Source of the DNA: a virus | Taxonomy: Duplodnaviria; Caudoviricetes | Length of the DNA stretch: 64,000 nt | Direction: 5' to 3' (one strand) | Virus record (IMG/VR): IMGVR_UViG_3300028833_000083 | Span: 62,114-126,113 of that record | Shown here: positions 37,489 to 62,670 of the stretch, in pieces | Layout of the letters: each line of letters opens with the position of its first letter | Numbering within the stretch: position 1 is the first letter of the stretch | Notes under the pieces: generated by a model | The model's input: only the letters and a program-made list of their open reading frames with translations | Databases searched by the model: none | Told to the model about the DNA's origin: nothing | Translations under genes and position numbers: made by a program

Positions 37489-37752
37489 ATGAATGAGAAG
37501 GTTTATGAGACAAGTAAGATAACTGGAAGGACATATGAGCTATTCTCCCAGATAAGGATCCTTAATATACAGCAGTGTATTTTTTATCTGGAGAATGGCG
37601 TTGTCCTTAATGACATAGAAATTAGTGAAGACCGTAAGACGCATCAGCCAATTATGGTCTTTTTATTTAATAGAGAGGAAACTCGCGATGCTTACGATAA
37701 ATGGTGTAAGCGTCGCGATCAGATATTTGATTATGAAAGTAGCAGGAATTGA
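37489..37752 (+). CDS. Hypothetical protein
   Basis: AAGGAGG RBS; 87 aa. Confidence 0.65.
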   Translation: MNEKVYETSKITGRTYELFSQIRILNIQQCIFYLENGVVLNDIEISEDRKTHQPIMVFLFNREETRDAYDKWCKRRDQIFDYESSRN

Positions 37753-38224
37753 TGCAAGCACTACATGTTCGGGCTTAGCAATTATTGAAGATGGTAAGTT
37801 AGTATATCATGACATAATCGATATGAAACGAAACAGAGATTCTGAAAAGCGTGTAATGGATATGATGGATGAGATAGGCGCTTTTATAATTGATAATTCG
37901 CCCGATGTGGTTTATATTGAGGACTCATGGAATAAACAGAATATCGAAACTACCAAGATGTTGTCTAATATTCTTGGAGCGGTAATGTATGTATGCAGAA
38001 AAAATAATATACCATTTTTTAAATTACTTCCATCTGCTTGGCGTAGTACCGTTGGAATAAAATTAAATAAGGGTGGGGCTAAGCTTAAACGAGAAGAACT
38101 TAAAAAAGAAGCCGTTAATAAAGTTATGAGGTCACACAAGATAGAGTGTGGCGATGACGAAGCTGAGGCGATATGTATAGCTGAAGCTGGATGGCTTATG
38201 CAAGCAACTGATTTATTTGAATGA
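37733..38224 (+). CDS. ruvC: RuvC-like Holliday junction resolvase
   Basis: VAGIDASTTCSG, VYIED, W(R)S, DDEAEAICIA: RNase H-fold acidic residues. Confidence 0.8.
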   Translation: MKVAGIDASTTCSGLAIIEDGKLVYHDIIDMKRNRDSEKRVMDMMDEIGAFIIDNSPDVVYIEDSWNKQNIETTKMLSNILGAVMYVCRKNNIPFFKLLPSAWRSTVGIKLNKGGAKLKREELKKEAVNKVMRSHKIECGDDEAEAICIAEAGWLMQATDLFE

Positions 38225-38754
38225 AAGGAATTAAGATTATGAATATAGAAACATTTATTGCACAGATGAACGGTGATCATAAAGAAGGTGTTGTTGAAAA
38301 GCATATCATCAAACAATATGTGCCTCTTGAAAATAAAATTGCCGAGGCAAAAAAAATAATTAATACTGCATGCTATACAAGTGTTATAGATCCAATGGGT
38401 GTCGAAAAAAGAGTATTTAAAATTGATACAGTGCAAAAAGAATTTTTAACATTTTTAGCACTTATTAAATTATATACAGATCTTGATTTTTCTGAAAACG
38501 TTCTTAAGGATTATAATATGTTGGCAGAAAAAAAGTATACTAAAAAGCTTATTGGTGCCATGCCTGAAGACGCTCGCGATTTTAACACTGTTTTAAATAT
38601 GGTTTTTAATGATGAAATTGAAAATGTTACTTCAATTGGCAACGTCATTAATAGAGTTCTTTCTTCTTCTGATTCCGCAATCACTGCTATTATTAATGAG
38701 ATTATTTCTGGAGGTGTAAATAGTGGAGAAGAAAAACAAGGTGGCGATAAATAA
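38221..38754 (+). CDS. Hypothetical protein (possible tail assembly chaperone)
   Basis: Helical; lies before the tape measure. Confidence 0.5.
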   Translation: MKGIKIMNIETFIAQMNGDHKEGVVEKHIIKQYVPLENKIAEAKKIINTACYTSVIDPMGVEKRVFKIDTVQKEFLTFLALIKLYTDLDFSENVLKDYNMLAEKKYTKKLIGAMPEDARDFNTVLNMVFNDEIENVTSIGNVINRVLSSSDSAITAIINEIISGGVNSGEEKQGGDK

Positions 38755-39298
38755 AGATTTTTTTGGTCAATTAAATAGAGAGCTGAATAATTTAAAAAAT
38801 GATATAGGGAATCATGTTGCCGAAGAGGCTAAACATAGATTAAGTGCTGTAGCCAATAAAGCTATTAAAGATTTTTATGATGATTACATTCCTAGAAATT
38901 ATTCTCGACATTATCAATTTGAAACTAAAGCGTTTCGTCCGTATCGTAATACAAATATTAGTAGTGGTAAGTATTATGGAGGTATACGTCTTACTCCCGA
39001 ACTTTTTGATGATGTATATGAAATAGACACATATAAGGTATATGGAATGGTTATGGGGTGTGTAATAGATAATTCTGTTACAGACAATCCCGATATAGAT
39101 TTCGATTCCATTGAAGCACTTGGAGGTTATCATGGCCCATTTAGTATTTTTAACAATGATCCTCCCCCAACTAGACCAGATCCTATTTCGCAAATATTTG
39201 ATGAATTAGAAAATATATATCTTGAGCAAGATATATTAATAAAGGATGCCATTGCTCAATCGAAAATAAAACGAAAATATAAATTAATAGATTTTTAA
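38723..39298 (+). CDS. Hypothetical tail-region protein
   Basis: GTG start after GGAGGT; FYDDYIPRNYSR motif. Confidence 0.55.
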   Translation: MEKKNKVAINKDFFGQLNRELNNLKNDIGNHVAEEAKHRLSAVANKAIKDFYDDYIPRNYSRHYQFETKAFRPYRNTNISSGKYYGGIRLTPELFDDVYEIDTYKVYGMVMGCVIDNSVTDNPDIDFDSIEALGGYHGPFSIFNNDPPPTRPDPISQIFDELENIYLEQDILIKDAIAQSKIKRKYKLIDF

Positions 39299-39313: not shown

Positions 39314-42300
39314 ATGGCAAATTCAAAAATAATTAGCGCCAGTATTGCCGTTGATATAAAAAATTTACAAGAGGTTACTGGCGCGGTTCAAGGTCTGGGT
39401 CAAGAGTTGTCAAATATGAAGGTTGATAAAAATCTTGAACCTAGACTTAAAAATGTAGAAAAAACTTTAGCTGGTGCTGTTCAGATGATTTCTGAGGTAA
39501 CAAACAAAATAGATGTTTTATCTCAAGCTAGTGGAGTTAATCCTAAGACGCTTACTGATTTGGCGGCACTTACTAATTCTCTTGCAGAAACTAAAATTGC
39601 AGTTGATGCACTTGAGGCTAAATTTAATAATCTATCTAATAGTATAAAGGTTGGAGATGTTGGCGTAAAGCAAATAACTAATAGTATCACTAGCGACATA
39701 ACCAATATGACTTCTTCTATTAATGATAGTCTAAGTGAAACTGCATCTGCGATTAAAAGAGGCGGGAAAGAAATAGTTGAAAGCTACAATAATCTTCTTG
39801 AATGGATAAAAACAGAGAAAATTGCAGCGGACGATTTAACAAATGGCGATGCCGAAAAAGCTATTGAAATATTTAAAATAGAAGATGTTGATGATGTTGA
39901 TGCAAAAATAAAAAAAGTAAAACAAAGACTTCAAAAAGATTTAAAAGATTTTGCTGAGGCAACTAAAAATTTTAATAATGCAAAATTAAATAATGTCGAT
40001 AACGATGATTTGGAAAAATATGCTGAAAAGCAAGCTGAAGCTTTGGACAAACTCAAAGAAAGTTTTACTGCTTTTTATAATTATGCAGATTTAGATCATT
40101 TGTCTGGTGTAAAAGTTCCCAAGGCAATGCAAAATCTTCTTGACACTATAACAGTTGAATTGGGTGGTCTCGAAGGGAAGACATTCAAAACCTTTGAGGA
40201 AATATATGATTTTATAGATGTTATATCTAAAAATATTGAGGGCTCTATTGTTGGTGCTATTAAGTCAGTTGAAGGTGCAATGGAAGAAGCCAACAAGGCT
40301 GAAGTGCTAACTGAAAGAAAGGCGCCGAAAAAAAAGGCTGACACCAAAAAGAAAGTCGTTAATGGAAAAGAGAACAATGATGAAATAAGAACTGGTGTAG
40401 TTATAAAGGAAGGAACGGATGCTGAACTTATTGCAGAATTAAAAACTGTAATAGATAATCTCCAAAAGTTCGTTAATACACATCCTATCGAATTAGACGC
40501 CGTTATTAATCCAACTTGGGGAACTACGCAAACTACAAAGTATCTTAAGTCTATTCGTGAACAACTTTCTAAAAAAAATGGCAATATAGATGAGAAGCTT
40601 GCAGAGCGTATATATGGATTGCAAGATGCATTTGGAAAAGATTTTTCTGACGCTCTCAATCGTTCAATAGAAAAACTTAAGACAAGTTTAAGCAAGGAAG
40701 GATTTACAGTTGGAAAACTTAAAATTGAAGATTCCACTGTATCAAATTTTAAACAACAGCTTACAGATGCTATCGGAGAAGTAGAGGTTAATGTGCTTGC
40801 CAATATCCAAGGAATTGGATATGAAAATAAAAATTCAGACCCTGAATTACTTAGCAAGGCAGATGCTCTTTTTGATGAATTGCGAAATGCTGATAAATAT
40901 GATAATGAATTAATAAAAGAATTAGTTAATTTAATAAAAGAAAATAATCTTAATATTGATTTTTCTGATGCATATAAAGATCAAATTAAAAATATAGTTA
41001 AGGGTCTTGTTGATGGCACATATATGTCAATCCCTGAAGCAATAATGAAAAATAAGGGTCATTGGGGAGAAACACCTCAAGGTGAATTTACCAAAAATAG
41101 ACATTATATAAATGAATTAATTGATAAAATCAACAATACAAGAAGCCCTCAGAAAATAGCTGAGTATCAACAAGAACTTACAAGATTATACGCAAGGAAT
41201 CAAGAAATTGTTGCTCAATTAATGAGTGAGGTAAAAGATGAAGAGGAAACTCAGCCCATTAGTGAAATTACACAACAAGCTGAAAAGGTTGTTGTTAATA
41301 CTTCTAACGCAACAATTAATATAAACAATGGGACGATCAATGGCTCAGGAAATATTATAGATAATGTTGATCATGAACATGAAACTCCGAATGATATTTT
41401 TGGATATACCAAATTCATTGGAAAAGATGATCTTAATCAACTTAAAATTGACGAAAAAGAACATATAGATGAATTAAAAAAAGACAAAGATATAGCAAAA
41501 GAGACACGAAGACTTGAAAAGGCAATAAATGATGTAAAGAATATAGACGATTTATTAACGTCGTTTATGGCTGAAATTCCTTATGAAATAAATTATAATC
41601 TCACTAGGGATAAAAATGGAAAACTAATATATTCTAAAAATTCAGTAATAACCCAATTAGATGCAGGTAGTACGCCCGTTAATTCTACGTCTGCGTATAC
41701 TGTAGGTCAAATTCATAATCATCCAGGTGAGATGTCTTTTGATATTCCTTCAATACAAGACGTAGTATATGATTTTATACATATAGAACAAAAGATTCAT
41801 GATATAGCTTCTGAACTACAAAAGGGCGTAAATTCAGATTTGTTTAATGAATACAAATCCTATATTTCAAGTAATGGTAGTTTACTTACAGTAGATTATT
41901 CCGATCTGTTAAAAATGACTCCCGAACAACGTGATGATGAATATTTAACAAGGTTATCCAAATTTTTAGTGTCATCATTGTTTAATGATCAAGTAGGTTA
42001 TACTGATAAATTATTAACCAAGGACGAAGAAACACAAAGCATGTTTTTCCCCCTTCAATTACAAAGTAGTTATATAAATGAAGCATTCGGCAGGAAAACA
42101 ACAGAGGGTTTTTTCGATGAAAATGGTAAATGGGTATCTAGTAACTTTGAATCTGAACTTTCTCAAGAAATCATTACGCAATTAAATCAATTAGCAGACA
42201 TAATTAAGAATGAACTTATTAATGAATCTATAACTGATTTTGATAAAATACGTGACATGTTTGGCATGTTATCGGTTGAAACCATTAAGGGAGATGCGCT

Positions 42301-45300
42301 TAAGTTTTTCCAAAAAGTAGCTGAGCAAGCAGTTCAGAGGGGGATGATCTTCTCTGCTTCAGGAAATACTAATCAAACCGTATCGAATACTGTTAAAGAA
42401 ACTGCTAACAACATAGAGAATACAGTTAAAGAAATTGCTGAAAAATCAGAAGCAACATTAGTTGCTACTCGTGACGAACTTGTTAAAGCAGCGAATCAAA
42501 AATTTGCAGAGATATTAGCAGGAGAAAGGGCTGGCAATTTAGATTTCGATGCCATTGATACCTTAGTTAAAGACTTAAGACTAGCAGGGATAGATAAGCT
42601 TAGTTCTACTAAACTTGCTACTACTACCACTACTGGACGTATAGTCGATGCGATGCTTAAAGGTGACTATGCTTCTGCTCTTGAGGCATTTCGATCTACC
42701 ACTAGTCATTCTGACGAAGCTAAAGCAAGAGCATTAGAAGTTCAACAAATGTCTAAATTCTTTGAACGCTTCCAGAAACTCTATGCTATGCAAACCATAC
42801 AAAAAAAAGGTACTGGTAGTGAAAAGAGTATTCAGATGTTTGTGGATGCAGTTCGTAAGAGCGGTGTTGACTTCAAGGTTGATCCTAAATATCAGGATAA
42901 TGAAATTGGCAAGCTTATTAATTCGATGCTTACCAGAGGATATAAAACTGTAGCTGACGCTATTAATGCTAATAAGCAATCAAATGAGAATGTTGATAAT
43001 ACGCAGACAAATATAAACGGCCAATCGGTATCTATTGATACAACTAAAGTTACAATTAGCAGTCCTTCAGAGGTAAAAATAACTGGAACTCAACGTATTG
43101 CTGAGGCTACGCAAAAAATAAGTAATGCGACCATTGAAATTACAAATGGCAAATCCACGACTAATACTGTTGAAAAGGATAAGACAAATAAATCTGAAAA
43201 TAAACCAGTTGAATCTAATAATAATTCTAATAAAAATATAGATAATAAATCAAAGAAATTATTAGACGAATATAATAATAATGTTTTAGAAAGAGGAAAT
43301 CTTTCATTTGGTGATTATTTATATAAACAAGGACAAATATTATCAAAGTTACAAAACAACAATGTTGATGTAAAAAAAAGTCAAACTAACTCAATAAAAC
43401 ATTATCAGCAATATGTTGATGAAATAAATAAGATAATAAACACTACAACAGATAATATTTTAAAAGAACAATTAATACAGATACGAACAGATTTAATTGA
43501 CAATGTTAATATTCTTAATGCGCCAGTTACTTCTGACAATATAAAAGGTGCACAAGATGCTATACAAAATGTTTTAAAAAATATTAATGCCTTTGATAAA
43601 ATTTCAACAGGATTAGAATTAAAGGCAAAAGAAATAAATACGTTTCTTACAGCAATATCAAAAATAGATGAGATTATTTATAAAGGAAAAGATAAAAATC
43701 TTTCTAAGAGTGCACAAGAAACTATATTAAATGCAAATAAAAGAGCAGCAGAACTTAAAGATACATTAATGACTGCTCAAAAAAATAACGATTATTCTGA
43801 AATAGATATAGAATCTATACGTCAAGAATTATTTGATCTCCGATATAATGTTGGCGAAGCGATAAATCAAACTGTAGTAGACAAGCTCGATATAAAAAAA
43901 CTTGTAAGGAAACTTGATAATCTTCAGATAGATGAAGTTAAAGCAGATCCAACAGTTATTTCTAGGGTTAAACAATTAAGAAAACAACTTCAAAATATAG
44001 TTGATGATGATGCTAGGGAAATGTTAACCGAAGAATACAACAATTACTTTAAGGAGGTTTCCCAGCTTTCTGGTACAGTAAGTAAATCTGATAGAACATT
44101 CTTTGGTAATTTTATGAAAGAATGGCGACATAAAAATTATCAAATGATGGCACAGTTCTTCTCATTCTATGACATTATTCGTTATATGCGTGAGGCTGTT
44201 AATGTTGTTAAGCAATATGATACTGCACTCATTGAAATGATGAAAGTGTCTGATGAGACAAGATTCTCTCTTGAAAGATATCAGCAAACATTGTTCGATA
44301 CAGCTGATGCCATAGGCTCTTCTGCTCTTACGCTTGAACAGTCTACTGCCGACTGGATGCGTATAGGTGAATCTCTTACTGAAGCTGCCGAGTCTGCAAA
44401 AGCCGCCCAGATACTTATGAACGTATCCGAGTTCCAAGATATTAATAGTGCGACTCAGGCGCTTGTATCTGCGTCTCAAGCATATGCTGAACTTGACAAA
44501 ATGGAAATTGTTGACAAGATTAATAAACTTGGTAACGAATTTCCTATTGCCACCGATCAGCTTGCAACTGCACTTCAGAACTCTGCGGCAGCACTAACTA
44601 CTCAGGGTAATAGTCTTGAAGAAGCTCTTGCACTTGTTGTTGGCGGTAATATAATCACTCAGGATGCGCTTAAGACTGGTACTGGTATCAGGACAATTGC
44701 GCTTAGAATTGCGGGTACTAAAGAAGCAAAGGACGAACTTGCAGAGCTTGGAGAAGGCGTTGATGATTTTGTCGTAAGAACAGAATCAAAAACTCGTAAG
44801 CTTATTATGGATTATACCGCCGTTGCATCTAATGGATTCAAAGGCGTAGATATCTATAATGATAATGGTAATCTTCGTAGTACTTATGAGATCATGCAAG
44901 ACATTGCTGATATTTATAAGGAGATCCAGCTTGAAGATAGACAGGCGGGCACCAACAGAGCTAATGCCCTTGTAGAATTACTTGCAGGTAAAAACCGTTC
45001 AAATATCGCGGCAAGTATATTAACTAATCCCGACACTATTCGTGAAGCATATGAGGCGGCTCAAAATGCCGAAGGTAGTGCTATGCGCGAGAATGAGAAA
45101 TATCTCACTAGCGTAGAAGCACATATAACCATGTTTAAGAATGCGGTCGACGAGCTTATTACTAGTCTTATAGATTCGGGATTTATTAATGAGATAATTG
45201 ATTTCGGTACAACACTTGTAAATCTATTAAAAGAAATAACTGATGCAATAGGCGGTGTTGGCACTGCCTTGGCTGGTATTGGTATTGGCGTTGCGGCCAA

Positions 45301-48300
45301 AATGAATGTAATTACGGATAAAGATTATGGATTAATAAAATCTATAAAAACAATTGCCAATCAACCATTAGGCCAAGATGCATTAATGAAGCTTTACGCC
45401 AATACATCTAGTCCTGAAGAGTTAATGTCACAAATTGCTGGTAAAGGTTTAACAAGAGAAGGAGCTAAATTTCTTGAGGTAAACAATGTTACCAAGGATA
45501 TTGAGGGACTTGAAGAAGCAATTGTTGACGCTAAGGGTGCTACTAATGCTTTAAGTAGCGCTTGGCAAACAGTTGGGTTTTCCATAGCAGCCATTGTGAG
45601 TACAGTAATAATAGCTGCGATAGCTAATCATGTAAAAAAGATTAAAGAGGCTCAGAAGGCTACTCGTGAATATGCTAGAAGTGTAAAGGAACAATCTGAT
45701 TCTATAAAAGAATATGCAAAACGAATAGCGGATGCAAAGCAAATTATTGATGACGAAAGATCTTCTACCGATGAGGTCAGAGAAGCTAAAAATCAATTAC
45801 TTGATATTCAGAATGAACTCAATGATTCATATGATATTTATACAAATAAAATTAAAGACAGCAATACAGAATTAAAAAAGTCTATAGAATTATTAAAACA
45901 AGAAGCGATAGAAAATGCAAGAAAAGCCTTAGGCGAATCATATGGAGACGGCGGAACCTTTACGCCTTCTAGTAATGAAAAGGCCGAGAATGCGTTTAAT
46001 AATAGAATACAACTTGAGGATAAAAATAAGGTTACTAATAGTGCTGTTGCAAATTTGATAAGATCGTTAGGAATTGATTTAACAATTACTCAGAGCAGCG
46101 CATTTCTTGCTAGTTCAGACTATGAGACACTCGGCAAGGATTTAAATCAGGCCATCCAAATATTAAGTAGTCAAAAATATGAAAATAGCGAAATTGCAAC
46201 TCAGGCAAGAAACGTTCTGTCTGACGCATTAACAGAATACAACAAAGATATAGAAGAAAACAAAGATCTTGAATACAATAGAGGAATGGTTAGTGTTTAT
46301 GATACTAATCGAGAAAAATATAATCTTGCTGTTGACGCATATTTGCAAGCAAATATAGAACCTTCTGAAGAGAACAAGGAATTAGCAAAAAAATTAATAC
46401 TTGAATTATGGAAAGATATTGAGGCTGCTGAAAATACGGCTGGTATGTATTGGGCAAAACAATTCTTTAAGGGATATGAAGATGCCATTGAAGAACAAAT
46501 AACTGATAAAAAATTTTCTAATGAAATATATGAAGCTGGAAGTAATGGCGATATTGGCGAAATATTATCAGCGTACGCTAATTATGCAAGTAATGGTTCT
46601 CATAATTTATCCGCAGAACAAATTAAACAATATCTTGAAGGTAATTATGAAGGCGTTGATGAACAAGAGAAACAATATCTTGATGATATTGCGCGAATAA
46701 TTAATGAAAATAATATTTTTATAGATGAATTAATTGATTATTTAATTAATAATGGTTCGATAAAAACCGAAGATCGTCTTAAGTTTGAAGACTCTTATAA
46801 TGAACAAAAAGAAAATGCCAGAAAAGTACTGGGTATGTCTGAAGAAGATTTTGACGCACTCAACATAAGTAATGATGAAGAACTTACTAAGTGGAAAGAT
46901 ATTATAGCGGCTACCAATGACGCTAAAGAAGCCGTTCGTATGTATTATCTTGCAACTGCTGGATTTGGTGCCACATTAGATTCCAGTACTATTCTTAAAA
47001 ATATGCAAGAGCAATACAAGCCAGCATTTGATGCACTTGCTGAGTCCTATAAAGAAATCTTTGATGATAAAAATAATTATAAAGGTATAAGTAAAATTAC
47101 GGCTGAAAAACTTCAAGGCGTAAATGCACAATTTGAAGAAATAAATAAGAAACTTAAAGAAGCTGGATTAGATATAATTCCTCAAGATGCTATTAATAGT
47201 TTCTTAGATACTCTTTCAACCGAAGATATTTTAGATGACTCATTTACAACTAAGGCTGAAGAGGTTCATGCAGCATATAATAATATTGCAACCACAATAG
47301 TTGACAGTCTTAATCCAGCTCTTGGACAAGCATCGTTTGAAACTGTTAATCTGATGACTAAACAACTTAAACAGCTTGGAGTTACCAACGCTGAGGAAGT
47401 TATATTTACCAGACTTGGTTATACAATTGATGAATGTTCTACCGCAATGGATACTTATGCAGCGGCCAAAGAGGCAGCTGATGCAATAGATTTAGATCTT
47501 GACAAAGATGTGTCTGAATTTACTGCTGAAGAATGGGCTGCAATATCTAGTGATGAAGCCATTATGGAATACTACAGACATAGGGCTCGCCTTATGGCTG
47601 AAAATATTAGCACGGTTGAAGATGTACAAAACTTAGTAAACCTTACCAAAGCTCTTGGTGATACTACAGTTGGAGCTATAGCATTAGCTGAAGCTATAAG
47701 TAGATTAGACACAATCAATGCTAATACAGAAAAGATTGATGCTCTAAATGAGAAAATACAGAATGCTGGTCGTACTGGTGACTGGAGAGGCATAGCCGAA
47801 TACCAGCAACAGATCGATGCGCTTAAAAAAGAAAATGCTGACGTAGCAAGTTCTTTACTTGAAGATGTTAAGTATGAAGCTGAATTTGCATCTTCTGAAT
47901 GGGATGGAAATGAAGTTACATCTTCAACTGATAAAGGTTCAGAATCTAAGCAGAAGTTTGACTGGATCGAACGTGCAATCAAGAAAATCCAGCGCGCAGT
48001 AACTAATCTCGGTAAAGTGGCTGATGCCACATACAAAACATGGGGCGAACGTCTCGATGCTATTATGGGCAAGACGGAAGAGTTCCATGATGAGATTGGC
48101 CAGTTTGGACGTGGCAATATTGATCTGTATAATAGACCAGTATATCGAAAAATAGATGAAAACGGTGATGAATGGACAGAAACCACATTTAGCCATGTAG
48201 AAGAAGATGAATATGGTAGATGGGTATTAGTACCTAGGATAGCCAGAGACGATTATGGTAATGCATATGAAATGTCAGAACGAGAAGCATGGGGCCATTA

Positions 48301-50650
48301 TGAAGACACTGGAGAATACCTTGGTATATTTGATACCATTGAAGAGGCTAATGAGTATGCTGAAAAACTTCATCTTCAGCAAGAAGCTATTTATGATGAT
48401 TATGATAATTTCACGTCTAGCAAATATCAGAAACTTAAAGAAGAAATAGCTCTGCAAGAACAAGCTTCTCAGGCTTATATGGCAGAGGCTAAAGCAATTG
48501 GACTTAGCGCTGAATATGTAAATAAGATTCAGAACGGTAAGATGGATATCGAAACCGTTACTGATGAAAAACTTAAAGAGGCTATTTCCGATTATCAGGA
48601 ATACTATGATAAGGCGACAGACGCTGCTGATGCTGTAGAAGATTTGCGTGGCGAAATTGCTCAGCTTGCACAGACCAAGTTCGATATGATTACTAAGCAG
48701 TTTGAAGAGATGGCTCTTGCTATTGATCACGCCGCTACTCGTATTGGACATATTCAGAGCAAGATGGAGGCAGAAGGTTATTTTGAATCTTCAGCACTTA
48801 TTAAGCAACTTAAGGCTGGCAACGAAGCAAAACTTGAACAGCTCAAAGAAGAGGCGCTTGAACTTGCTGCGTCCATTGATGAGGCCGTAACCAATGGCGA
48901 CATTGAATATGGTTCTGAACAATGGTGGGGTATGTACGATTCGCTTCAGAATGTTAATGATCAAATTGTCGAAATGTCATCTACTATTGCTGATCTTAAT
49001 GACCAGCTTAGACAGATGGAATGGGACAACTTTGATTATATTGCAGATGCTGTACATAGGCTTGTTGACGAGAATGAATTTCTTATTGACGTCCTTCAAG
49101 ATGAAAGCTTACTGTTTGAAAAGAACGCCTATATTGGTGAGGATTTATATGCAAATGGCAACATGAGCGATGCTGCTCTCGCTGTACAAGGTTTACATGT
49201 TAATAGCATGCAAGTACTTGAACAGCAGAACGAAAAGTATGCTAATGAAATCAAAAAGATTAATGCCGAGCTCGCAAATGATCCTAACAATAAGAAACTT
49301 CTTGAACGTAGAAATGATCTTATTGATCAGCAACAAGACATCATCAAAGGAATCACCAGCGAAAAGCAAGCAATTAAAGAGCTTATCAAAGAAGGATACG
49401 AAACATTTCTTGACTATTTACAGAAGTCTATTGACTATCGCAAGAAAGCTCTTGAGGCACAAAAGAATCTTTATGATTATCAGAACACTGTTGAAGATCA
49501 GACAAAGACTATTTCAAGTTATAGAAAGCAGCTGGCTGCACTTGGCGGTGATGATTCCGAAGAGAATCAGGCTCGCTTACAGACACTTGCTGATAATTTA
49601 AATAAGGCCGAGAAAGAACTTCAACAGACAGAATATGAGAGATGGCTGTCTGATCAAGAAGAAATGATGGACAACTTATATGATCAGTTTGATAAGCTGA
49701 TTAGTGATAAGTTAGACCAGACTGACGAGCTTATTAGGCGCGCAGTTGAACAGACTGAAAGTAGCTCAAAGAATATTTCTGATACTATCACTTCAGAATT
49801 TAGCGAGTTCCTCTATGAACTTGACAACACATCGTTTGGTGTGAATATGGATGACCGCATGAGCAACGCTATCAGTGCTGTTAATAGTGTAGAGAATGCT
49901 ATTGGCAACATGGTAGAGGCTGCAAATGTTAATGCTCAAAATGAACTGAGAGCACTTGAGGCACTTGCTCAAACCGTTGCTGATTCCGCAGTACAACGTC
50001 CTTCATATGAATCTCAAGTTCCCGCTTCTACTGGAGGTAATGGTGGCAACGGAGGAAATAATGGTACTAGTCCTAATGGTGGTAATCCCCCTAAAACAAT
50101 TAGCGATCCTAATTATGATAAGAAAAAGAATACTGAAAATTCTAGAAGAATTAGAGAACTTAATGAACAACTTGCAGCATTAAAAATCCAACGTGATAAA
50201 TATAAAAAATTGGCTAATGGCCCTATGGGACATACTTATATTCCCACATTAAATCAATATGAAAATCAAATTCATGAAATTGAAAACACAATTAAAGAAT
50301 TGTCGGGCTTTGCCAAGGGTGGAACCATAGGTAAGGCTATTAAGAAGACTGGAGAGGATGGCATTATACTTGCACGTAGCGGTGAGGAAGTACTTAGCCT
50401 TGAACGTGTAAAACAAATGCAGGAAATCTTTAAGATGATGCAACCTCTTACCAATATGGGAAGCAACTCTATGTTTAGTAGCGGCACTACTGTTAATGGT
50501 ATGAATGTATCATTTGATCTTCCTAATGTAGCAAATTACGAAGACTTCGTAAGACAAGCCAAGAGCGATCCGACCTTTGAAAAATTAGTACAAAGCATGA
50601 CGATAGGGGCATCCCTCGGTAAAAGTAAACTGAGTAAATACTCGATCTAA
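39314..50650 (+). CDS. Tape measure protein (3778 aa) with inserted domains
   Basis: TP901-type core (~44150-45200: DKINKLGNEF, LAGKNRSN), long coiled coils, C-terminal GFAKGG...GEEVL. Confidence 0.9.
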   Translation: MANSKIISASIAVDIKNLQEVTGAVQGLGQELSNMKVDKNLEPRLKNVEKTLAGAVQMISEVTNKIDVLSQASGVNPKTLTDLAALTNSLAETKIAVDALEAKFNNLSNSIKVGDVGVKQITNSITSDITNMTSSINDSLSETASAIKRGGKEIVESYNNLLEWIKTEKIAADDLTNGDAEKAIEIFKIEDVDDVDAKIKKVKQRLQKDLKDFAEATKNFNNAKLNNVDNDDLEKYAEKQAEALDKLKESFTAFYNYADLDHLSGVKVPKAMQNLLDTITVELGGLEGKTFKTFEEIYDFIDVISKNIEGSIVGAIKSVEGAMEEANKAEVLTERKAPKKKADTKKKVVNGKENNDEIRTGVVIKEGTDAELIAELKTVIDNLQKFVNTHPIELDAVINPTWGTTQTTKYLKSIREQLSKKNGNIDEKLAERIYGLQDAFGKDFSDALNRSIEKLKTSLSKEGFTVGKLKIEDSTVSNFKQQLTDAIGEVEVNVLANIQGIGYENKNSDPELLSKADALFDELRNADKYDNELIKELVNLIKENNLNIDFSDAYKDQIKNIVKGLVDGTYMSIPEAIMKNKGHWGETPQGEFTKNRHYINELIDKINNTRSPQKIAEYQQELTRLYARNQEIVAQLMSEVKDEEETQPISEITQQAEKVVVNTSNATININNGTINGSGNIIDNVDHEHETPNDIFGYTKFIGKDDLNQLKIDEKEHIDELKKDKDIAKETRRLEKAINDVKNIDDLLTSFMAEIPYEINYNLTRDKNGKLIYSKNSVITQLDAGSTPVNSTSAYTVGQIHNHPGEMSFDIPSIQDVVYDFIHIEQKIHDIASELQKGVNSDLFNEYKSYISSNGSLLTVDYSDLLKMTPEQRDDEYLTRLSKFLVSSLFNDQVGYTDKLLTKDEETQSMFFPLQLQSSYINEAFGRKTTEGFFDENGKWVSSNFESELSQEIITQLNQLADIIKNELINESITDFDKIRDMFGMLSVETIKGDALKFFQKVAEQAVQRGMIFSASGNTNQTVSNTVKETANNIENTVKEIAEKSEATLVATRDELVKAANQKFAEILAGERAGNLDFDAIDTLVKDLRLAGIDKLSSTKLATTTTTGRIVDAMLKGDYASALEAFRSTTSHSDEAKARALEVQQMSKFFERFQKLYAMQTIQKKGTGSEKSIQMFVDAVRKSGVDFKVDPKYQDNEIGKLINSMLTRGYKTVADAINANKQSNENVDNTQTNINGQSVSIDTTKVTISSPSEVKITGTQRIAEATQKISNATIEITNGKSTTNTVEKDKTNKSENKPVESNNNSNKNIDNKSKKLLDEYNNNVLERGNLSFGDYLYKQGQILSKLQNNNVDVKKSQTNSIKHYQQYVDEINKIINTTTDNILKEQLIQIRTDLIDNVNILNAPVTSDNIKGAQDAIQNVLKNINAFDKISTGLELKAKEINTFLTAISKIDEIIYKGKDKNLSKSAQETILNANKRAAELKDTLMTAQKNNDYSEIDIESIRQELFDLRYNVGEAINQTVVDKLDIKKLVRKLDNLQIDEVKADPTVISRVKQLRKQLQNIVDDDAREMLTEEYNNYFKEVSQLSGTVSKSDRTFFGNFMKEWRHKNYQMMAQFFSFYDIIRYMREAVNVVKQYDTALIEMMKVSDETRFSLERYQQTLFDTADAIGSSALTLEQSTADWMRIGESLTEAAESAKAAQILMNVSEFQDINSATQALVSASQAYAELDKMEIVDKINKLGNEFPIATDQLATALQNSAAALTTQGNSLEEALALVVGGNIITQDALKTGTGIRTIALRIAGTKEAKDELAELGEGVDDFVVRTESKTRKLIMDYTAVASNGFKGVDIYNDNGNLRSTYEIMQDIADIYKEIQLEDRQAGTNRANALVELLAGKNRSNIAASILTNPDTIREAYEAAQNAEGSAMRENEKYLTSVEAHITMFKNAVDELITSLIDSGFINEIIDFGTTLVNLLKEITDAIGGVGTALAGIGIGVAAKMNVITDKDYGLIKSIKTIANQPLGQDALMKLYANTSSPEELMSQIAGKGLTREGAKFLEVNNVTKDIEGLEEAIVDAKGATNALSSAWQTVGFSIAAIVSTVIIAAIANHVKKIKEAQKATREYARSVKEQSDSIKEYAKRIADAKQIIDDERSSTDEVREAKNQLLDIQNELNDSYDIYTNKIKDSNTELKKSIELLKQEAIENARKALGESYGDGGTFTPSSNEKAENAFNNRIQLEDKNKVTNSAVANLIRSLGIDLTITQSSAFLASSDYETLGKDLNQAIQILSSQKYENSEIATQARNVLSDALTEYNKDIEENKDLEYNRGMVSVYDTNREKYNLAVDAYLQANIEPSEENKELAKKLILELWKDIEAAENTAGMYWAKQFFKGYEDAIEEQITDKKFSNEIYEAGSNGDIGEILSAYANYASNGSHNLSAEQIKQYLEGNYEGVDEQEKQYLDDIARIINENNIFIDELIDYLINNGSIKTEDRLKFEDSYNEQKENARKVLGMSEEDFDALNISNDEELTKWKDIIAATNDAKEAVRMYYLATAGFGATLDSSTILKNMQEQYKPAFDALAESYKEIFDDKNNYKGISKITAEKLQGVNAQFEEINKKLKEAGLDIIPQDAINSFLDTLSTEDILDDSFTTKAEEVHAAYNNIATTIVDSLNPALGQASFETVNLMTKQLKQLGVTNAEEVIFTRLGYTIDECSTAMDTYAAAKEAADAIDLDLDKDVSEFTAEEWAAISSDEAIMEYYRHRARLMAENISTVEDVQNLVNLTKALGDTTVGAIALAEAISRLDTINANTEKIDALNEKIQNAGRTGDWRGIAEYQQQIDALKKENADVASSLLEDVKYEAEFASSEWDGNEVTSSTDKGSESKQKFDWIERAIKKIQRAVTNLGKVADATYKTWGERLDAIMGKTEEFHDEIGQFGRGNIDLYNRPVYRKIDENGDEWTETTFSHVEEDEYGRWVLVPRIARDDYGNAYEMSEREAWGHYEDTGEYLGIFDTIEEANEYAEKLHLQQEAIYDDYDNFTSSKYQKLKEEIALQEQASQAYMAEAKAIGLSAEYVNKIQNGKMDIETVTDEKLKEAISDYQEYYDKATDAADAVEDLRGEIAQLAQTKFDMITKQFEEMALAIDHAATRIGHIQSKMEAEGYFESSALIKQLKAGNEAKLEQLKEEALELAASIDEAVTNGDIEYGSEQWWGMYDSLQNVNDQIVEMSSTIADLNDQLRQMEWDNFDYIADAVHRLVDENEFLIDVLQDESLLFEKNAYIGEDLYANGNMSDAALAVQGLHVNSMQVLEQQNEKYANEIKKINAELANDPNNKKLLERRNDLIDQQQDIIKGITSEKQAIKELIKEGYETFLDYLQKSIDYRKKALEAQKNLYDYQNTVEDQTKTISSYRKQLAALGGDDSEENQARLQTLADNLNKAEKELQQTEYERWLSDQEEMMDNLYDQFDKLISDKLDQTDELIRRAVEQTESSSKNISDTITSEFSEFLYELDNTSFGVNMDDRMSNAISAVNSVENAIGNMVEAANVNAQNELRALEALAQTVADSAVQRPSYESQVPASTGGNGGNGGNNGTSPNGGNPPKTISDPNYDKKKNTENSRRIRELNEQLAALKIQRDKYKKLANGPMGHTYIPTLNQYENQIHEIENTIKELSGFAKGGTIGKAIKKTGEDGIILARSGEEVLSLERVKQMQEIFKMMQPLTNMGSNSMFSSGTTVNGMNVSFDLPNVANYEDFVRQAKSDPTFEKLVQSMTIGASLGKSKLSKYSI

Positions 50651-56610: not shown

Positions 56611-58815
56611 ATGGGAAATGTATCCATTCGCCCCGCAGTGCATCGTCAGAGTCTTATACCTAAGTATGGTCTTCAAATAGGAGAACGTGGTGATAAATGG
56701 GAAGAAGAGTTTATAAAAAATATAGACTTTTCAACTATGGATAACGGAGAAGATTGGAGTTCTTTGTTTAGGTATTCCAAGGCTAGTGATTTTGATCTTT
56801 CTGCAATGGATAGTTCCAATGTGACTAACATGGATTATTTATTTGAAGGAGTTACTGCTGGTGTACTTCGTCTTAATGGACTTACTATTGGCCCTGAAAC
56901 TACTGGTATAAATATGTTTCATGGAACATTTGATGGCATAGATTTTACTGGTGCTAAATTCTATTGTATTCCAAGAGATATGTTTAAAGGCATAACATTA
57001 AATAGTACACTCAGACTTGGCACATTAGATGGTTCACACTTAACGAGTCTTGCCAATATGTTTAAGCAAGCTGAAATACCCTCAGTAGATCTTACTGGCT
57101 TTAACACTAGCAACGTGCAAAATATGTCATACATGTTTTATCAAGCAAGTATATCTGAAATTATAGGGTTAAAAGATATTGATTATTCCAATGTAACCAC
57201 TACTGAATATATGTTTAGTTCATATAAAGGATTAATCATAGATTTATCTGGTATAAAATTTTTATCATTGGAAAATGCTGCGTCAATGTTTAGTTTTTCA
57301 AATAATTATGCTATACAGCAACATGAACATCTTGTTATAAACTTGTCTAATTGTTATTTCCCAGTGCTTGCAACATCAACTTATATGTTTGAAATGAGCA
57401 CATCGTCAGATGACTATGGTGCAATCGATTTAATTTTAGATGGTACAATAATTAAATCAAATGGATTATATGCATATGGCATGTTTATGTATATAAAATT
57501 AATAGATAATAAAGGATTAGATTTGTCTTGTTTGAGTGGGGCAAAAATATCATATGCTTCTGGCATGTTTCAGTATAGTGATTTGGGATTAACAGATTTT
57601 TCTGTTTTAGATCTTTCTAGAACAACGTCTACATATTATATGTTCTATGAAACTAGAACTCCATTGATTCATTTAAATACTACTGTAAGTTTTAATATGA
57701 ACAAGGTGGATTATCTTATTTATAATTCGTATGCAAACGAAATTATTCTAGAGTTAATCATTCCACCCAATATACAAAAAATATATGAATTAGTTTGGCC
57801 AAATCAAGACAATCAAATAGTTACAATAAAAAACAGTGATATTTATGCAGTCGATGTTAATAATTTTTTATATAGTTCTCAGTATCCTTTAAAAGTCACA
57901 TTTGAAAACACTACGTTACACGTTGGACATGGGGCAGATTTTGAATACTTTGCACCATGTTATCCTGACAGTGGATTTAGGGAATCATATGTAGACATGA
58001 GTGATTTGGTTGTAGACGGTGAAGTTGGAAGTGTAAGATACATGTTTGGAGACCCTGCTAAATATAAAGAAATTAAATTTCCCAGAACTGGAATGAAAAT
58101 TACTGGAAATACATGTTATTTTTTAACTGGATCTTGGTATACTGATTCTAGTGGTCATGATATGTATAGTAGTCCTATTTTTTATAATCTTGATAAGTTA
58201 GACTTTTCTGAAAACACAAATATTGAATGGACAATTTGTAAATGTAAACAGCAACTATTTGATTTGCGAGGTTGGAACCCTAAAAACGCTAAAAGAATTT
58301 ATTATGTATTTAACCAGTGTGAAGGAGATTTTAATCTTAGTGGTTGGGATGTTAGCAAAGTAGAAACTCTTACAATTGGAAGCGCCTTGAAAGGCAACCT
58401 TGATGTAAGAAACTGGGACTTAACTAACGCCACATCTATTACTGGTTTATATGATATTAGAGATGGACATTATGTAGATTTTGACGGATGGCGCATTAAT
58501 AAAGGCCAAACAGTTAGCACTTGTTATCTTTTAAATGCCAATTGGGATGTCCACGCAACCATATATCTCCCTAACACACTATATAAACCTGATAATTATT
58601 TTGGAACAATGTTTGGTGGTGCTGAGCCATATACTAACCCTACGTCGGGAATAACACATGAAGGGTCGATTATAGATGTATATACTAACGCGACCAGCAT
58701 TGAAGAACAAGGATGGATATTTTATCATATATATACGGAAGAGGAACCTTATGGTTATAGGATTCATTGGGGGACAACTCATGATGATTTTCTTAATGCA
58801 GTAGGAGGTGATTAA
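56611..58815 (+). CDS. DUF285/BspA-type leucine-rich repeat surface protein
   Basis: Repeated (D/N)TSNVTNM..MF and W(D/N) motifs. Confidence 0.8.
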   Translation: MGNVSIRPAVHRQSLIPKYGLQIGERGDKWEEEFIKNIDFSTMDNGEDWSSLFRYSKASDFDLSAMDSSNVTNMDYLFEGVTAGVLRLNGLTIGPETTGINMFHGTFDGIDFTGAKFYCIPRDMFKGITLNSTLRLGTLDGSHLTSLANMFKQAEIPSVDLTGFNTSNVQNMSYMFYQASISEIIGLKDIDYSNVTTTEYMFSSYKGLIIDLSGIKFLSLENAASMFSFSNNYAIQQHEHLVINLSNCYFPVLATSTYMFEMSTSSDDYGAIDLILDGTIIKSNGLYAYGMFMYIKLIDNKGLDLSCLSGAKISYASGMFQYSDLGLTDFSVLDLSRTTSTYYMFYETRTPLIHLNTTVSFNMNKVDYLIYNSYANEIILELIIPPNIQKIYELVWPNQDNQIVTIKNSDIYAVDVNNFLYSSQYPLKVTFENTTLHVGHGADFEYFAPCYPDSGFRESYVDMSDLVVDGEVGSVRYMFGDPAKYKEIKFPRTGMKITGNTCYFLTGSWYTDSSGHDMYSSPIFYNLDKLDFSENTNIEWTICKCKQQLFDLRGWNPKNAKRIYYVFNQCEGDFNLSGWDVSKVETLTIGSALKGNLDVRNWDLTNATSITGLYDIRDGHYVDFDGWRINKGQTVSTCYLLNANWDVHATIYLPNTLYKPDNYFGTMFGGAEPYTNPTSGITHEGSIIDVYTNATSIEEQGWIFYHIYTEEEPYGYRIHWGTTHDDFLNAVGGD

Positions 58816-61800
58816 ATGGGGCAAGTGTTATTACCCCCTCGCGTAGGTACAAATAAAATTACCCTTGAGGGGTATGATCATTTAACATGGCGAAGTAAGA
58901 TAATACCTTATATTCGTACAGATAACTGTATCGATATGAGCAATATGTTTTCAGGAGAGAACTATCAATTGCCCGAAACCTTAGACTTAAGGAGATTTAA
59001 CACCTCTAAAGTTACAGATATGAGGGCGATGTTTGACCACTGTATGTCAACGTCTATATTAGGACTTGAAAATTTTGACACATCTAAAGTTACTGATATG
59101 AGCTTTATGTTTAATGAAGCTCATATCACAACTTTAGATACATCTAATTTAGATACATCTAAAGTTACAACTATGGAAAATATGTTTTGTAATTGTCCAG
59201 CAGAAGTGTTAGATGTAAGTGGGTTCAATACAGAACTTGTAACAAACATGTCTTGTTTGTTTGAAGGTGTTCCCGCAGAACTTGATGTAAGTGGTTTTGA
59301 TACTTCCTCAGTGACAACCATGCATAATATGTTCAAAGATACTGGTAGTCAAACATTGAATTTAACCAACTTTGATACATCACTCGTAACAGATATGAGT
59401 AGCATGTTTGACGGAGCTCAATGTGAAGAACTTGATGTGTCCAATTTTGATATGTCTTCGGTTGAAGATACAAATCGAATGTTTGCGAGAATATCTGTTG
59501 ACGAATTAGATATTTCTAATCTTGATTTGTGCAACGTAGAAGTAATGAGCGCTATGTTTTATAATTCTACTATAGGTAATTTGATTTTCCCTCAAGAAAT
59601 GAATTTAACAAATGTAAAAACAATTGGTAGTATGTTTAATGGCGCAACAATTCCTACGTTGGTTTTACATAGATGGGATATGCCAGCTCTAGAAAACCGA
59701 TACGGACTGTTTAGTGGTTTTCACGCAAATACATTGGATTTATCAGATTGGGATTTGGGAGAATATGCAAGTAGCAGTAGTACAGAATACTTATTTTACA
59801 ATGCAAATATTGACAATTTAATATTTTCAAATAGTAATAATTTCCCAGAAGGATACGATATATACTGTTGTTTTGGTGGTTTTAAAACAAGTGGAACGTT
59901 AGATCTTTCCAACTTTAATTTTAACAAAGCAACAAGTGCTAATGGATCTTATCCTATGTTTTATAATGCAAAAATCAATACTTTAATTTTGCCAGACATA
60001 ACAAATGAGACTTTTGCAGGAAACACAACTATTACATTGTTTCGAAATACTGGTGTTGAATTATTGGATATGAGCAATGCTATCTATAGTAAGAATGATA
60101 ATTATCTTTTTAAGGGACTGATTGCAACACGTATTAATACGCCTAATTTTATCCCTTTAGATACACCCATATATAATTCGGTTGCAAAAGGAAGAGCAAA
60201 ATATGTAGACTATTCGGCAGTTAATACTATTGATGCAAATTATAATAATGCACAGTGGGGTTGTTTATCAAATTTTGCTCCAGAATATGTTAAAATAATG
60301 TGGATTCCATCTACTTTTGTTTTAGATGGCAATCGTAATATGTTATTAGGAAAAGAGGTTTATACGGATGCTGCAAATTATAGTGAATTAGGATGGGCTC
60401 TTGAACCTACAGATGCAATTATACACTATAATTCAACGCACGAAGATTTTGAACAAGCAATTTTAGATGATGATATTGGTTGGGAATCTCCTCTTGGAAA
60501 CCCTATATTTTTCTGTCATACACATGTGCCGCTTGGAACAGTAATGACTCAATATCAATTTGAATCAGATTATTCCACAGTTAACATTGATGGTGAAGAT
60601 GTAAACACTAATGAGTATGTATTTGATGAAGTTGGAGAACATATTCTAACAATTACTGCAAATAACTATGACTATAAACAAATAGTTCAAGTCGATGATC
60701 ATGGTGATTATACTACAATTTCTAATCCTAATTTTTATAAATACCAAGGATCATACGATAGAACTACTTATACCTATAGTTATATTAGAACGCAGTCTGA
60801 TGCAATACAGTTTAGATTATATAACGATAAATATTTATTTGCGTACCCCACTCAAAGAATAACATCAACAGAAACTGTTTATTATCGTCTTGAATTTGCG
60901 CCTAATACAAGCATAACAAAGGTATCTGGTGTTCCACATGAGATAGGCATGTTTATGTTAAGAGGATGCACACAATTAACGGATATATCAGAATTAATTA
61001 TATGCACAACGGGAAAGGCAGGGTTCAATCCGAATCAAATGTTCTCTAATTGTACTAATTTAACAGATGTGTCTGCAGTTGATAAGTGGCGTTGGTCGAG
61101 GTATTATTATATACATGACACTGGACGAGTTGGAAGTGGCAATATGCAGTCTGGTTATTGGGATGCCAGTGCAATGTTTGCATATACTGGGATTGCATCT
61201 GCTCCTAAAATGCAAATACCATCAGGAAGTTCGGGTATTTTTATGGGGTGCACTAATTTAACAGATATTTCAAAAATAACTGGATTTCAAACTGTTCAGA
61301 CTTCTTATGGGTCAGAGTATAATGGACGATACGAAAATCTTTTTAGTGGTTGTAGTAGATTGTCTAATGTAGATCGTTTAAACGTCCTATTTAAAGCAAT
61401 TGTTGATGCTGGACAAACTGGTGGATTTGATCTATATAATTTTTTGTACGGAACTGCAATTACAAGCTTGGATTTTTTCCCAGAAAATTTTCCTATTAAA
61501 AGCATGGATGGTGCATTTGGTCAATGTTCTTCTCTTACAGATATAAGTGGTATTGGTAGAATTAAGTGGTGTAGGCTAAATGATGCTCAAACTGGTAATA
61601 GTTTTTATCAAGTTTTTACAAACATACCAGCAACTGATTATTCTGCGTTGTCAAATTGGGATTGCTGTTTTAGTCAAATATATATGGGTTCATGTAAAAT
61701 GTCAAATCTTTCATTCATGCAAAATTGGGATTTGAGCAAATGCACTTACTATAATTTTAATGCTTGTCCAAATCTCACATCTCTAAGTACCTTAAAAAAT

Positions 61801-62670
61801 AAAATGGCTACGGATAAAGCTATAACTATGTATGTAAGTCATACACCTATTACATCGTGCGATGGATTACAAGGTGTGACATATAGCAAGTTGACGTTTG
61901 TTGGCTGTGCATCTTTACAATCCACTAATGGATTACAAGGCGCAACAATTAACAGTCTTGATCAACTATTTGATAGCTGTACATCTTTAACAGACATAAC
62001 AGCTCTTGCTGATGTTACATTTGGTAATACAAACAATCCAACAAATATGTTTCGTGGATGTACTTCTTTGACATCATTAAATGGATTACAAAACATGGAC
62101 GTATCTAATTTTACTAGTCTTGATTATATATTTTATCAATGTACGTCACTCTCTGATATTAGTGCAATAGCTGGATGGAATCCTTACCAAGTAAAAAATA
62201 TAAGATATATGTTTTGTTATTGTAGTAGTATTACTTCATTTTCCGCATTATCAGATTGGGTTACTGGACAGCTAACAGATGCTTACCGAGCATTTTCAGA
62301 TTGCACATCGCTTCAAAATTTAAATGGATTAAATGGGATTAATATAGGTCAATGTACAAACCTTAGTTATTTATTTAGCAACTGTACATCACTTACAGAT
62401 ATCAGCGGAATTATGCTTTGGTTTGTGGGAAATTGCCAAAACATGACTCAGATGTTTCGCGGTTGTACTAGCCTAACATCTATTGCGCCTATTAGATATT
62501 GGATGGTGTCTAAATTAACTAATATGCAGCAAATGTTTGATGGTGACACATCTATAGCTGATGCAGAATTATTAAACGACTGGACTAACTATAGAACAAT
62601 GACGAGTGTAAGTAGAAATTATGCATTTAGGAATGTTCCTAAACCTTGGCCCACTTGGGCAGTATCTTAA
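58816..62670 (+). CDS. DUF285/BspA-type LRR protein with two repeat arrays
   Basis: FDTSKVTDMS.MF repeats, then F..CTSLTDIS.L..W repeats. Confidence 0.85.
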   Translation: MGQVLLPPRVGTNKITLEGYDHLTWRSKIIPYIRTDNCIDMSNMFSGENYQLPETLDLRRFNTSKVTDMRAMFDHCMSTSILGLENFDTSKVTDMSFMFNEAHITTLDTSNLDTSKVTTMENMFCNCPAEVLDVSGFNTELVTNMSCLFEGVPAELDVSGFDTSSVTTMHNMFKDTGSQTLNLTNFDTSLVTDMSSMFDGAQCEELDVSNFDMSSVEDTNRMFARISVDELDISNLDLCNVEVMSAMFYNSTIGNLIFPQEMNLTNVKTIGSMFNGATIPTLVLHRWDMPALENRYGLFSGFHANTLDLSDWDLGEYASSSSTEYLFYNANIDNLIFSNSNNFPEGYDIYCCFGGFKTSGTLDLSNFNFNKATSANGSYPMFYNAKINTLILPDITNETFAGNTTITLFRNTGVELLDMSNAIYSKNDNYLFKGLIATRINTPNFIPLDTPIYNSVAKGRAKYVDYSAVNTIDANYNNAQWGCLSNFAPEYVKIMWIPSTFVLDGNRNMLLGKEVYTDAANYSELGWALEPTDAIIHYNSTHEDFEQAILDDDIGWESPLGNPIFFCHTHVPLGTVMTQYQFESDYSTVNIDGEDVNTNEYVFDEVGEHILTITANNYDYKQIVQVDDHGDYTTISNPNFYKYQGSYDRTTYTYSYIRTQSDAIQFRLYNDKYLFAYPTQRITSTETVYYRLEFAPNTSITKVSGVPHEIGMFMLRGCTQLTDISELIICTTGKAGFNPNQMFSNCTNLTDVSAVDKWRWSRYYYIHDTGRVGSGNMQSGYWDASAMFAYTGIASAPKMQIPSGSSGIFMGCTNLTDISKITGFQTVQTSYGSEYNGRYENLFSGCSRLSNVDRLNVLFKAIVDAGQTGGFDLYNFLYGTAITSLDFFPENFPIKSMDGAFGQCSSLTDISGIGRIKWCRLNDAQTGNSFYQVFTNIPATDYSALSNWDCCFSQIYMGSCKMSNLSFMQNWDLSKCTYYNFNACPNLTSLSTLKNKMATDKAITMYVSHTPITSCDGLQGVTYSKLTFVGCASLQSTNGLQGATINSLDQLFDSCTSLTDITALADVTFGNTNNPTNMFRGCTSLTSLNGLQNMDVSNFTSLDYIFYQCTSLSDISAIAGWNPYQVKNIRYMFCYCSSITSFSALSDWVTGQLTDAYRAFSDCTSLQNLNGLNGINIGQCTNLSYLFSNCTSLTDISGIMLWFVGNCQNMTQMFRGCTSLTSIAPIRYWMVSKLTNMQQMFDGDTSIADAELLNDWTNYRTMTSVSRNYAFRNVPKPWPTWAVS

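Follow-up and report, generated by a model that had tools for sequence, protein, structure and literature searches.

The tape measure protein of an SPbeta-like siphophage, a protein of 3778 aa that we designate P0001, appears to carry a divergent RadC-clade JAB metalloenzyme as a swappable passenger that would be released on ejection. We give this reading, which is drawn from sequence comparison, slightly better than even credence. The genome of the phage is a complete record of 126,113 bp with direct terminal repeats, and the window, by which we mean the whole stretch of 64,000 nucleotides analysed here, is its right half (62114-126113). The putative enzyme module occupies aa about 733-983 and would sit in the N-terminal extension, before the length-determining core. 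In a presumed MPN fold, H801, H803, and D816 would hold a zinc ion, E758 would activate water as the general base, and S813 would serve to stabilise the intermediate, following the scheme of other JAMM enzymes.

The gene encoding P0001 is a single uninterrupted frame (39314..50650, on the + strand like all features described below). The protein matches PhageMin_Tail (PF10145) over aa 1663-1878 with a score of 47.9 bits against a cut-off of 33.2, and phrog_4211, annotated as 'tail length tape measure protein', with an E value of 3.6e-43. This tape measure core (44300..44947) is 90-97% identical to that of two relatives, P0002 and P0003, with an omega of 0.04. On the 5' side, the gene is preceded by a virion structural gene of the YomU tube type, a RuvC-like gene, and two chaperone-like ORFs, and on the 3' side it is followed by DUF6558-type, Prophage_tail-type, and DUF285 repeat genes; the DUF6558/Prophage_tail-like order is also found in relatives. 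P0001 combines the attributes of a tape measure, namely a core above the cut-off, a gene position leading from chaperone to distal tail genes, and great length, and the gene neighbourhood is an SPbeta-like siphophage tail module. This type of tail, together with the DUF285/BspA-type fibre genes, suggests a Gram-positive host from the gut or rumen. The module-bearing part of the gene is AT-rich and lies ahead of the core, as the sequence-only reading of this DNA had described: the GC content is 0.31 at 38-44 kb, compared with about 0.37-0.40 in the rest of the window, and the core begins at aa 1663. Elsewhere, the phage has a gene for a genuine solo RadC-like protein (58.8 bits), of which one weak homologue is present in the phage collection.

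The translation of 39314-50650 contains EIPYE...VGQIHNHPGEMSFDIPSIQD...YISSNGSLLTV, and aa 801-816 read HNHPGEMSFDIPSIQD with Glu758 upstream. The E...HxH...S..D motif that the sequence-only reading had claimed is therefore present in P0001, at H801 (41714-41716), H803 (41720-41722), S813 (41750-41752), and D816 (41759-41761). Of the two glutamates in EIPYE, E754 and E758, the latter alone is invariant across the distant copies of the module described below, making Glu758 (41585..41587) the candidate general base. Eight residues further on, Asp766 (41609..41611) is the counterpart of 'LD' in the Glu strand of RadC. The candidate zinc ligands lie in His801-Asn-His803-Pro804 (41714..41725), which is followed by the loop GEMSFDI (41726..41746) and by Pro812-Ser813-Ile-Gln-Asp816 (PS..D; 41747..41761), with the candidate serine and the third zinc ligand. 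The same reading had put the His-to-Ser spacing at two residues over the consensus, and nine residues indeed separate H803 and S813, compared with seven in the strict JAMM pattern; by comparison of the copies, the excess resides in the loop, which exceeds that of canonical JAMM/RadC proteins by two residues. A JAB-like core consisting of the Glu strand hairpin, the HNHP strand, the PS..D helix, and the residues beyond it could be delimited to aa 735-880 (41516..41953) from an alignment of all module copies. Together with an extension of ~110 aa, it makes up the whole exchangeable module of aa 733-983 (41510..42262), as defined by BLASTP against two of the relatives.

How often such a pattern arises by chance depends on how much of it is counted. 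The loose pattern H.H.{7,9}S..D is expected 0.0015 times per shuffled P0001, and the window contains three instances over its six frames; taken alone, it is weak evidence. For the extended RadC-type form HNHP..PS..D, the chance expectation is about 5e-8 per protein, and one occurrence was observed.

To find relatives of P0001, 1.84 billion representatives were searched exhaustively with phmmer and 5.8 billion proteins through a word index, and the IMG/VR and JGI metagenomes were scanned. The giant tape measures retrieved were P0002 (3909 aa), P0003 (3911 aa), and P0004 (3926 aa), along with one encoded on an IMG/VR contig of 122 kb (L004/L010, also L007 and L008). The module family is small: the public data searched yielded only four related giant tape measure lineages with seven module copies among them. 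The phmmer search of 1.84 billion representatives yielded P0004 alone, apart from P0005, a spurious match to a repeat protein. Neither tblastn nor megablast matched any of 50,697 phage records, a profile of the module retrieved nothing from proteins of 301-2000 aa, and neither the module nor the solo RadC-like protein had a match, or a prophage copy, in a set of one genome per species covering 185,579 species.

The four lineages are 29-39% identical to each other over the module copies, and conservation among copies of about 30% identity is the informative kind for judging the motif. We aligned all seven copies (alignment A3) and, separately, six of them (alignment A2). A3 contains 21 invariant columns; those with a candidate role in function are E758, D766, A794, T796, H801-N-H-P804, P812-S813, and D816. 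An HMM built from A3 detects a single copy in P0001 (aa 729-896). Conservation had been set beforehand as the test of the motif, and the motif passed it, since E758, H801, H803, S813, and D816 are invariant in the seven copies of these four lineages and the distant copies are strictly spaced. The distant copies read HNHPNGVLIPSFGD in P0004, which includes HNHPNG, and HNHPSGVVIPSYAD in L004, and the second modules of P0002 and P0003 read HNHPSGSYLPSMMD and HNHPSGTLAPSLSD, respectively. All four copies in this second position (position B) have the canonical HNHP(S/N)GxxxPSxxD with seven residues between His and Ser. HNHPSG-x3-PS-x2-D is exact in L004 and in the slot-B copies of P0002 and P0003, whereas the window has HNHPGE-x5-PS-x2-D instead; the two-residue insertion is confined to the copies in the first position (position A), which are those of the window, P0002, and P0003.

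Across these proteins, the module occurs as an exchangeable cassette, in two alternative slots and in 0, 1 or 2 copies. By BLASTP, P0001 733-983 corresponds to P0004 1108-1361, and P0001 743-976 to 1063-1293 of the L010 tape measure. In P0001, the module precedes a block at aa 1016-1346; in P0004 and the L010 tape measure, the order is reversed, with the module after the homologous block. P0002 and P0003 have the module in both slots. Slot B of P0001 is empty (43349..43411 in alignment A1), and at this place P0002 and P0003 hold a second canonical module of ~280 aa, in which the aligned parts (aa about 1335-1511 of P0002 and aa about 1329-1496 of P0003) each contain HNHPSGxxxPSxxD and face a gap in P0001. 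A more distant giant tape measure with a truncated N-terminus, L011, is without the module in the 920 aa upstream of its core, so that related giant tape measures apparently include a zero-copy state.

This arrangement bears on the idea, also raised in the sequence-only reading, that the module is an autoprocessing peptidase that cuts its own tape measure, either as the tail matures or once the protein has been ejected, and thereby frees stretches of the N-terminal extension. Processing of the tape measure is known in other siphophages, and the module is located between blocks that are reshuffled among the relatives. Peptidase domains have also been proposed to cut giant multidomain virion proteins into units (PMC5512222). 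However, the partial tape measure L011 lacks the module, which indicates that a tail can probably be built without it, and relatives with two copies would not require both. Moreover, the JAMM enzymes characterised to date cut after ubiquitin-like tails, and a non-systematic search recognised no ubiquitin-like or Gly-Gly-type cleavage site. We consider self-cleavage distinctly unlikely.

Comparison with the two closest relatives revealed an island of high identity and low dS at aa 700-1200 (41411..42913). P0001 is 77-94% identical to P0002 and P0003 within the island and 28-68% identical around it, and dS is 0.16-0.44 in the island, whereas the N-terminal part and the core have values of 1.1-1.8. 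The island has an omega of 0.22-0.31, compared with the low value given above for the core. The island points to recent exchange between phages and moderate purifying selection. The 94% identity of aa 801-900 among these close relatives could be taken as a sign of strong constraint; we rejected this interpretation because dS is also low there, so the identity of this segment reflects the recent exchange.

As judged from its conserved residues, the signature of the module is of the RadC type and not of the Cap3 or Bil type. RadC-like JAB proteins (PF04002; E. coli YicR, YeeS, YkfG, and YfjY; PDB 2qlc) resemble the module in the block A-x-x-[VI]-x-HNHP(S)G-x3-PS-x2-D, in the Glu strand upstream of it, E-x4-L-x2-D-x4-(L)I, and in the order of these elements. 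In the E. coli RadC-like proteins, the strand reads E-x4-L-x2-D/N-x4-LI in the same register as in the module. The two also differ in several respects: RadC-like JAB domains stand alone or follow an HhH domain, whereas the module forms part of a tape measure; the module has neither the 'DH' strand nor any likeness after PS..D; and the copy in the window has the two-residue insertion in its loop.

Family searches gave signals in the same direction that stayed below their cut-offs. Searched by itself, the window copy matched no JAB family in Pfam (to E 10), PHROGs, or PADLOC, and no JAB entry in the PDB by sequence. Among the six copies of A2, Pfam RadC (PF04002) matched three below the cut-off, with a best E value of 0.0041 for a cut-out domain; searched as a whole protein, the best paralogue scored 14.4 bits (E 0.038) and did not reach the gathering cut-off of 22.1 bits. 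Prok-JAB gave a sub-threshold match to one of the six, and phrog_10276 ('DNA repair protein') matched four of the seven copies, also below threshold. In the PDB, the A2 profile had two best hits, both non-significant: 2qlc (E 0.14), which is a RadC homologue, and 9ild (E 0.86), a 'peptidase' bearing a JAMM motif. The nearest named protein-language-model clusters were Prok-JAB, Toxin-JAB1, and DUF4329, with scores of 0.85-0.91 that we treat as leads only.

A direct profile comparison was made between the module and a RadC profile composed of four E. coli RadC-like genes (L013-L016) and the family of the phage's own solo RadC-like protein (alignment A4). Hhalign aligned the two with a probability of 92% and an E value of 6e-7; the alignment spans 65 columns that run from the Glu strand through PS..D (aa about 749-817). 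The score of 46.7 was far above that of fully shuffled RadC profiles (11.5, maximum 15.4). When the 17 columns of the motif block were kept and the flanks were shuffled, however, the score was 48.5 +/- 2.1. Because the motif-kept shuffles score as high as the real profile, the whole hhalign score is that of the 17-residue motif, and we rejected the 92% over 65 columns as a measure of homology beyond it. With the motif removed from both profiles, the upstream halves scored 15.8 versus 9.2 +/- 1.4 (maximum 12.3) in 30 shuffles, and this motif-free alignment places E758 on the conserved Glu of RadC. The alignment of the Glu strand is a small but independent signal of RadC affinity, though a weak one. 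The downstream halves scored 8.4 versus 7.7 +/- 1.4 for the shuffles, that is, without similarity to RadC after the PS..D helix. The 'DH' strand of RadC is absent, with no invariant DH in A3, and the distance from Glu to His is 43 residues in the module compared with 50 in RadC, which implies that a segment of RadC in between is missing or shortened. The apparent affinity to RadC is confined to the level of the motif and the weak signal in the Glu strand.

These controls invite the reading that the resemblance goes no further than the motif and that the module is a tape measure segment, helical or beta, with a metal-binding or structural role, another fold, and no JAB catalysis. The 17-residue block accounts for the full profile score, nothing RadC-like follows downstream, no family match reaches its cut-off, and the Glu-to-His distance is shorter than in RadC. 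In addition, AlphaFold2 models of the module were of low confidence, with a pLDDT of 44.8 when no alignment was supplied and 39.1 when the seven-row alignment was. Both of these models place a beta hairpin just past E758 and a helix from PS..D onward, an arrangement that fits a JAB domain without proving it. Points against a resemblance limited to the motif are the very low expectation of the extended signature, the invariance at about 30% identity of all residues needed for JAMM chemistry, with Glu at the right distance, the alignment of E758 with the Glu of RadC even after removal of the motif, and the JAB-type names or DUF4329 of the nearest named protein-language-model clusters. Taken together, we regard a purely motif-level resemblance as unlikely, and as the reading to be taken most seriously after that of a RadC-clade enzyme.

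The sequence-only reading had interpreted the motif as a JAMM signature and had proposed an injected deconjugase that counters ubiquitin-like anti-phage defence. The first part stood, in that the residues are real, conserved, and of RadC type; the second found no support. In its full form, this proposal is a virion-borne isopeptidase that strips conjugates of the Bil or CBASS Cap2 type, either from tail proteins at assembly or from host targets at entry. The module does have the complete set of JAMM catalytic residues, and the E...HxH...S..D pattern is common to it and the JAMM/MPN+ isopeptidases, such as Rpn11, AMSH, CBASS Cap3, the Bil deubiquitinase, and the N-terminal domain of lambda gpK. 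Bil is known to conjugate a ubiquitin-like protein to the tail-tip protein during tail assembly, at a step that also recruits the tape measure (bioRxiv 10.1101/2023.09.04.556158). On the other hand, no sequence relation to these isopeptidases is detectable past the pattern, HNHP...PS is that of the RadC clade, and no ubiquitin-like partner is in view. The sub-threshold matches are to RadC, the RadC-like PHROG, and Prok-JAB only, and the PADLOC defence models, which include Cap3 and, in the 2023 database used, may be without Bil models, gave zero families for all seven copies at E values up to 10. Iyer et al. have further argued that RadC-type JAB domains are without a groove for the ubiquitin tail (PMC5512222; PMC3239186). 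An activity against ubiquitin-like conjugates seems improbable to us, and the RadC affinity makes a target that is not ubiquitin-like the more likely one.

Enzyme-like modules inside the tail ruler have precedents in SPbeta YomI, the Rpf motif of mycobacteriophage TM4, and T5 pb2, which are peptidoglycan hydrolase modules and presumably are ejected along with the ruler; to our knowledge, none of them is a JAB domain. The enzymes described as embedded in tape measures are wall hydrolases, and the module might likewise act on the cell wall by cutting an isopeptide-type bond in the cross-bridges of peptidoglycan, and would then stand in for the lysozyme or M23 domains of other tape measures. Such a role would suit the lack of a Pfam wall hydrolase domain in P0001 and the resemblance of its tail genes to those of SPbeta-type phages of Gram-positive hosts. 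We know of no JAB enzyme with activity on peptidoglycan cross-bridges, however, and RadC-type JAB domains are tied by gene context to nucleic-acid functions (PMC3239186), which leaves a wall-degrading role very improbable.

For the RadC-clade passenger that we favour, the route of delivery would be the tape measure itself. The tape measure would be ejected ahead of the DNA, and the module would reach the host envelope or cytoplasm and act on a host target there. Since tape measures leave the tail before the DNA, the enzyme would arrive at the moment of entry, and in this way the host probably receives an extra enzyme from the tail.

A parallel in overall organisation is provided by the polyvalent proteins of Iyer et al. 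(2017, PMC5512222), which are likewise giant, associated with virions or transfer, and built of enzyme modules that are shuffled, duplicated, and lost; RadC is among the modules listed. The architecture of P0001 varies among relatives. P0001 differs from the polyvalent proteins in being a bona fide tape measure and in having a single recognisable type of effector-like module, plus one unassigned insert. In the 2017 census, RadC modules were found within polyvalent proteins from conjugative elements only, and in phages as solo genes only (PMC5512222). A full-text search of the literature returned no paper that pairs a tape measure with JAB, JAMM, or RadC.

If the proposed reading is true, it puts a RadC module outside the conjugative elements that were its sole carriers in that census, and it extends the idea of polyvalent proteins, in which injected effector modules are shuffled, to the tail ruler of a siphophage. 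Wall-degrading enzymes are known cargo of tape measures, and a RadC-clade JAB module would be a different type of passenger. Few bacterial domains are as widespread as the JAB domains of RadC type, and we know of no biochemistry established for them. A module that occurs in 0, 1 or 2 copies and that would be needed at the moment of infection may offer a natural genetic handle on the function of RadC-type domains.

The giant tape measure protein (TMP) of the window was found to be interrupted in its coiled-coil part by an insert of approximately 105 residues (aa 2929-3034; window 48098-48415, + strand), which contains GRGNIDLYNRPVY. The insert is present in the related TMP P0004 and absent from P0002, P0003 and the TMP of a 122-kb IMG/VR contig; it appears to be another variable cassette of the protein, the second after the JAB-like module. 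A Pfam search gave no matches for it in the window's TMP, and P0004 showed only a faint DUF7336 match near its own copy. In the more distant giant TMP of IMGVR_UViG_3300031760_000264 (locus L011), the JAB-like module was not found in the available part of the protein. A strong DUF5648 match lies close to its C-terminus (L011:8759-9133, + strand, E 5.3e-40) and a KorB-like stretch immediately ahead of the core, a further case of passenger domains in these rulers.

Separately from the TMP module, the same phage encodes a solo RadC-like JAB protein of 159 residues with the motif HNHPEDVTDQSDDD (PF04002, 58.8 bits; locus L009:1447-1926, - strand; G000:C1:39993-40292, - strand, not part of the window). 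The protein belongs to a small family of 14 clusters, most of them 64–87% identical. The gene lies directly upstream of a 348-aa ORF, which by its sequence reads like a tyrosine recombinase.

Upstream of the TMP gene, a RuvC-like Holliday junction resolvase gene (37625-38224, + strand; phrog_159, E 7.9e-21) forms part of the tail module, flanked by the tube gene on one side and two chaperone-like ORFs on the other, and it occupies the same place in the related loci L001, L002 and L003. The two ORFs, encoding 177 and 191 residues (38221-38754 and 38723-39298, + strand, overlapping by 32 nt), immediately precede the TMP gene, and both where they lie and how long they are would suit a tail assembly chaperone pair. 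Neither matched any family; among their counterparts in L003, a faint YomO match was seen.

At the fibre position, the window encodes two very large DUF285/BspA-type repeat proteins of 734 and 1284 residues (56611-62670, + strand), and proteins of this type are likewise found there in L001 and L003. These repeat proteins suggest that the host is a Gram-positive gut or rumen bacterium.
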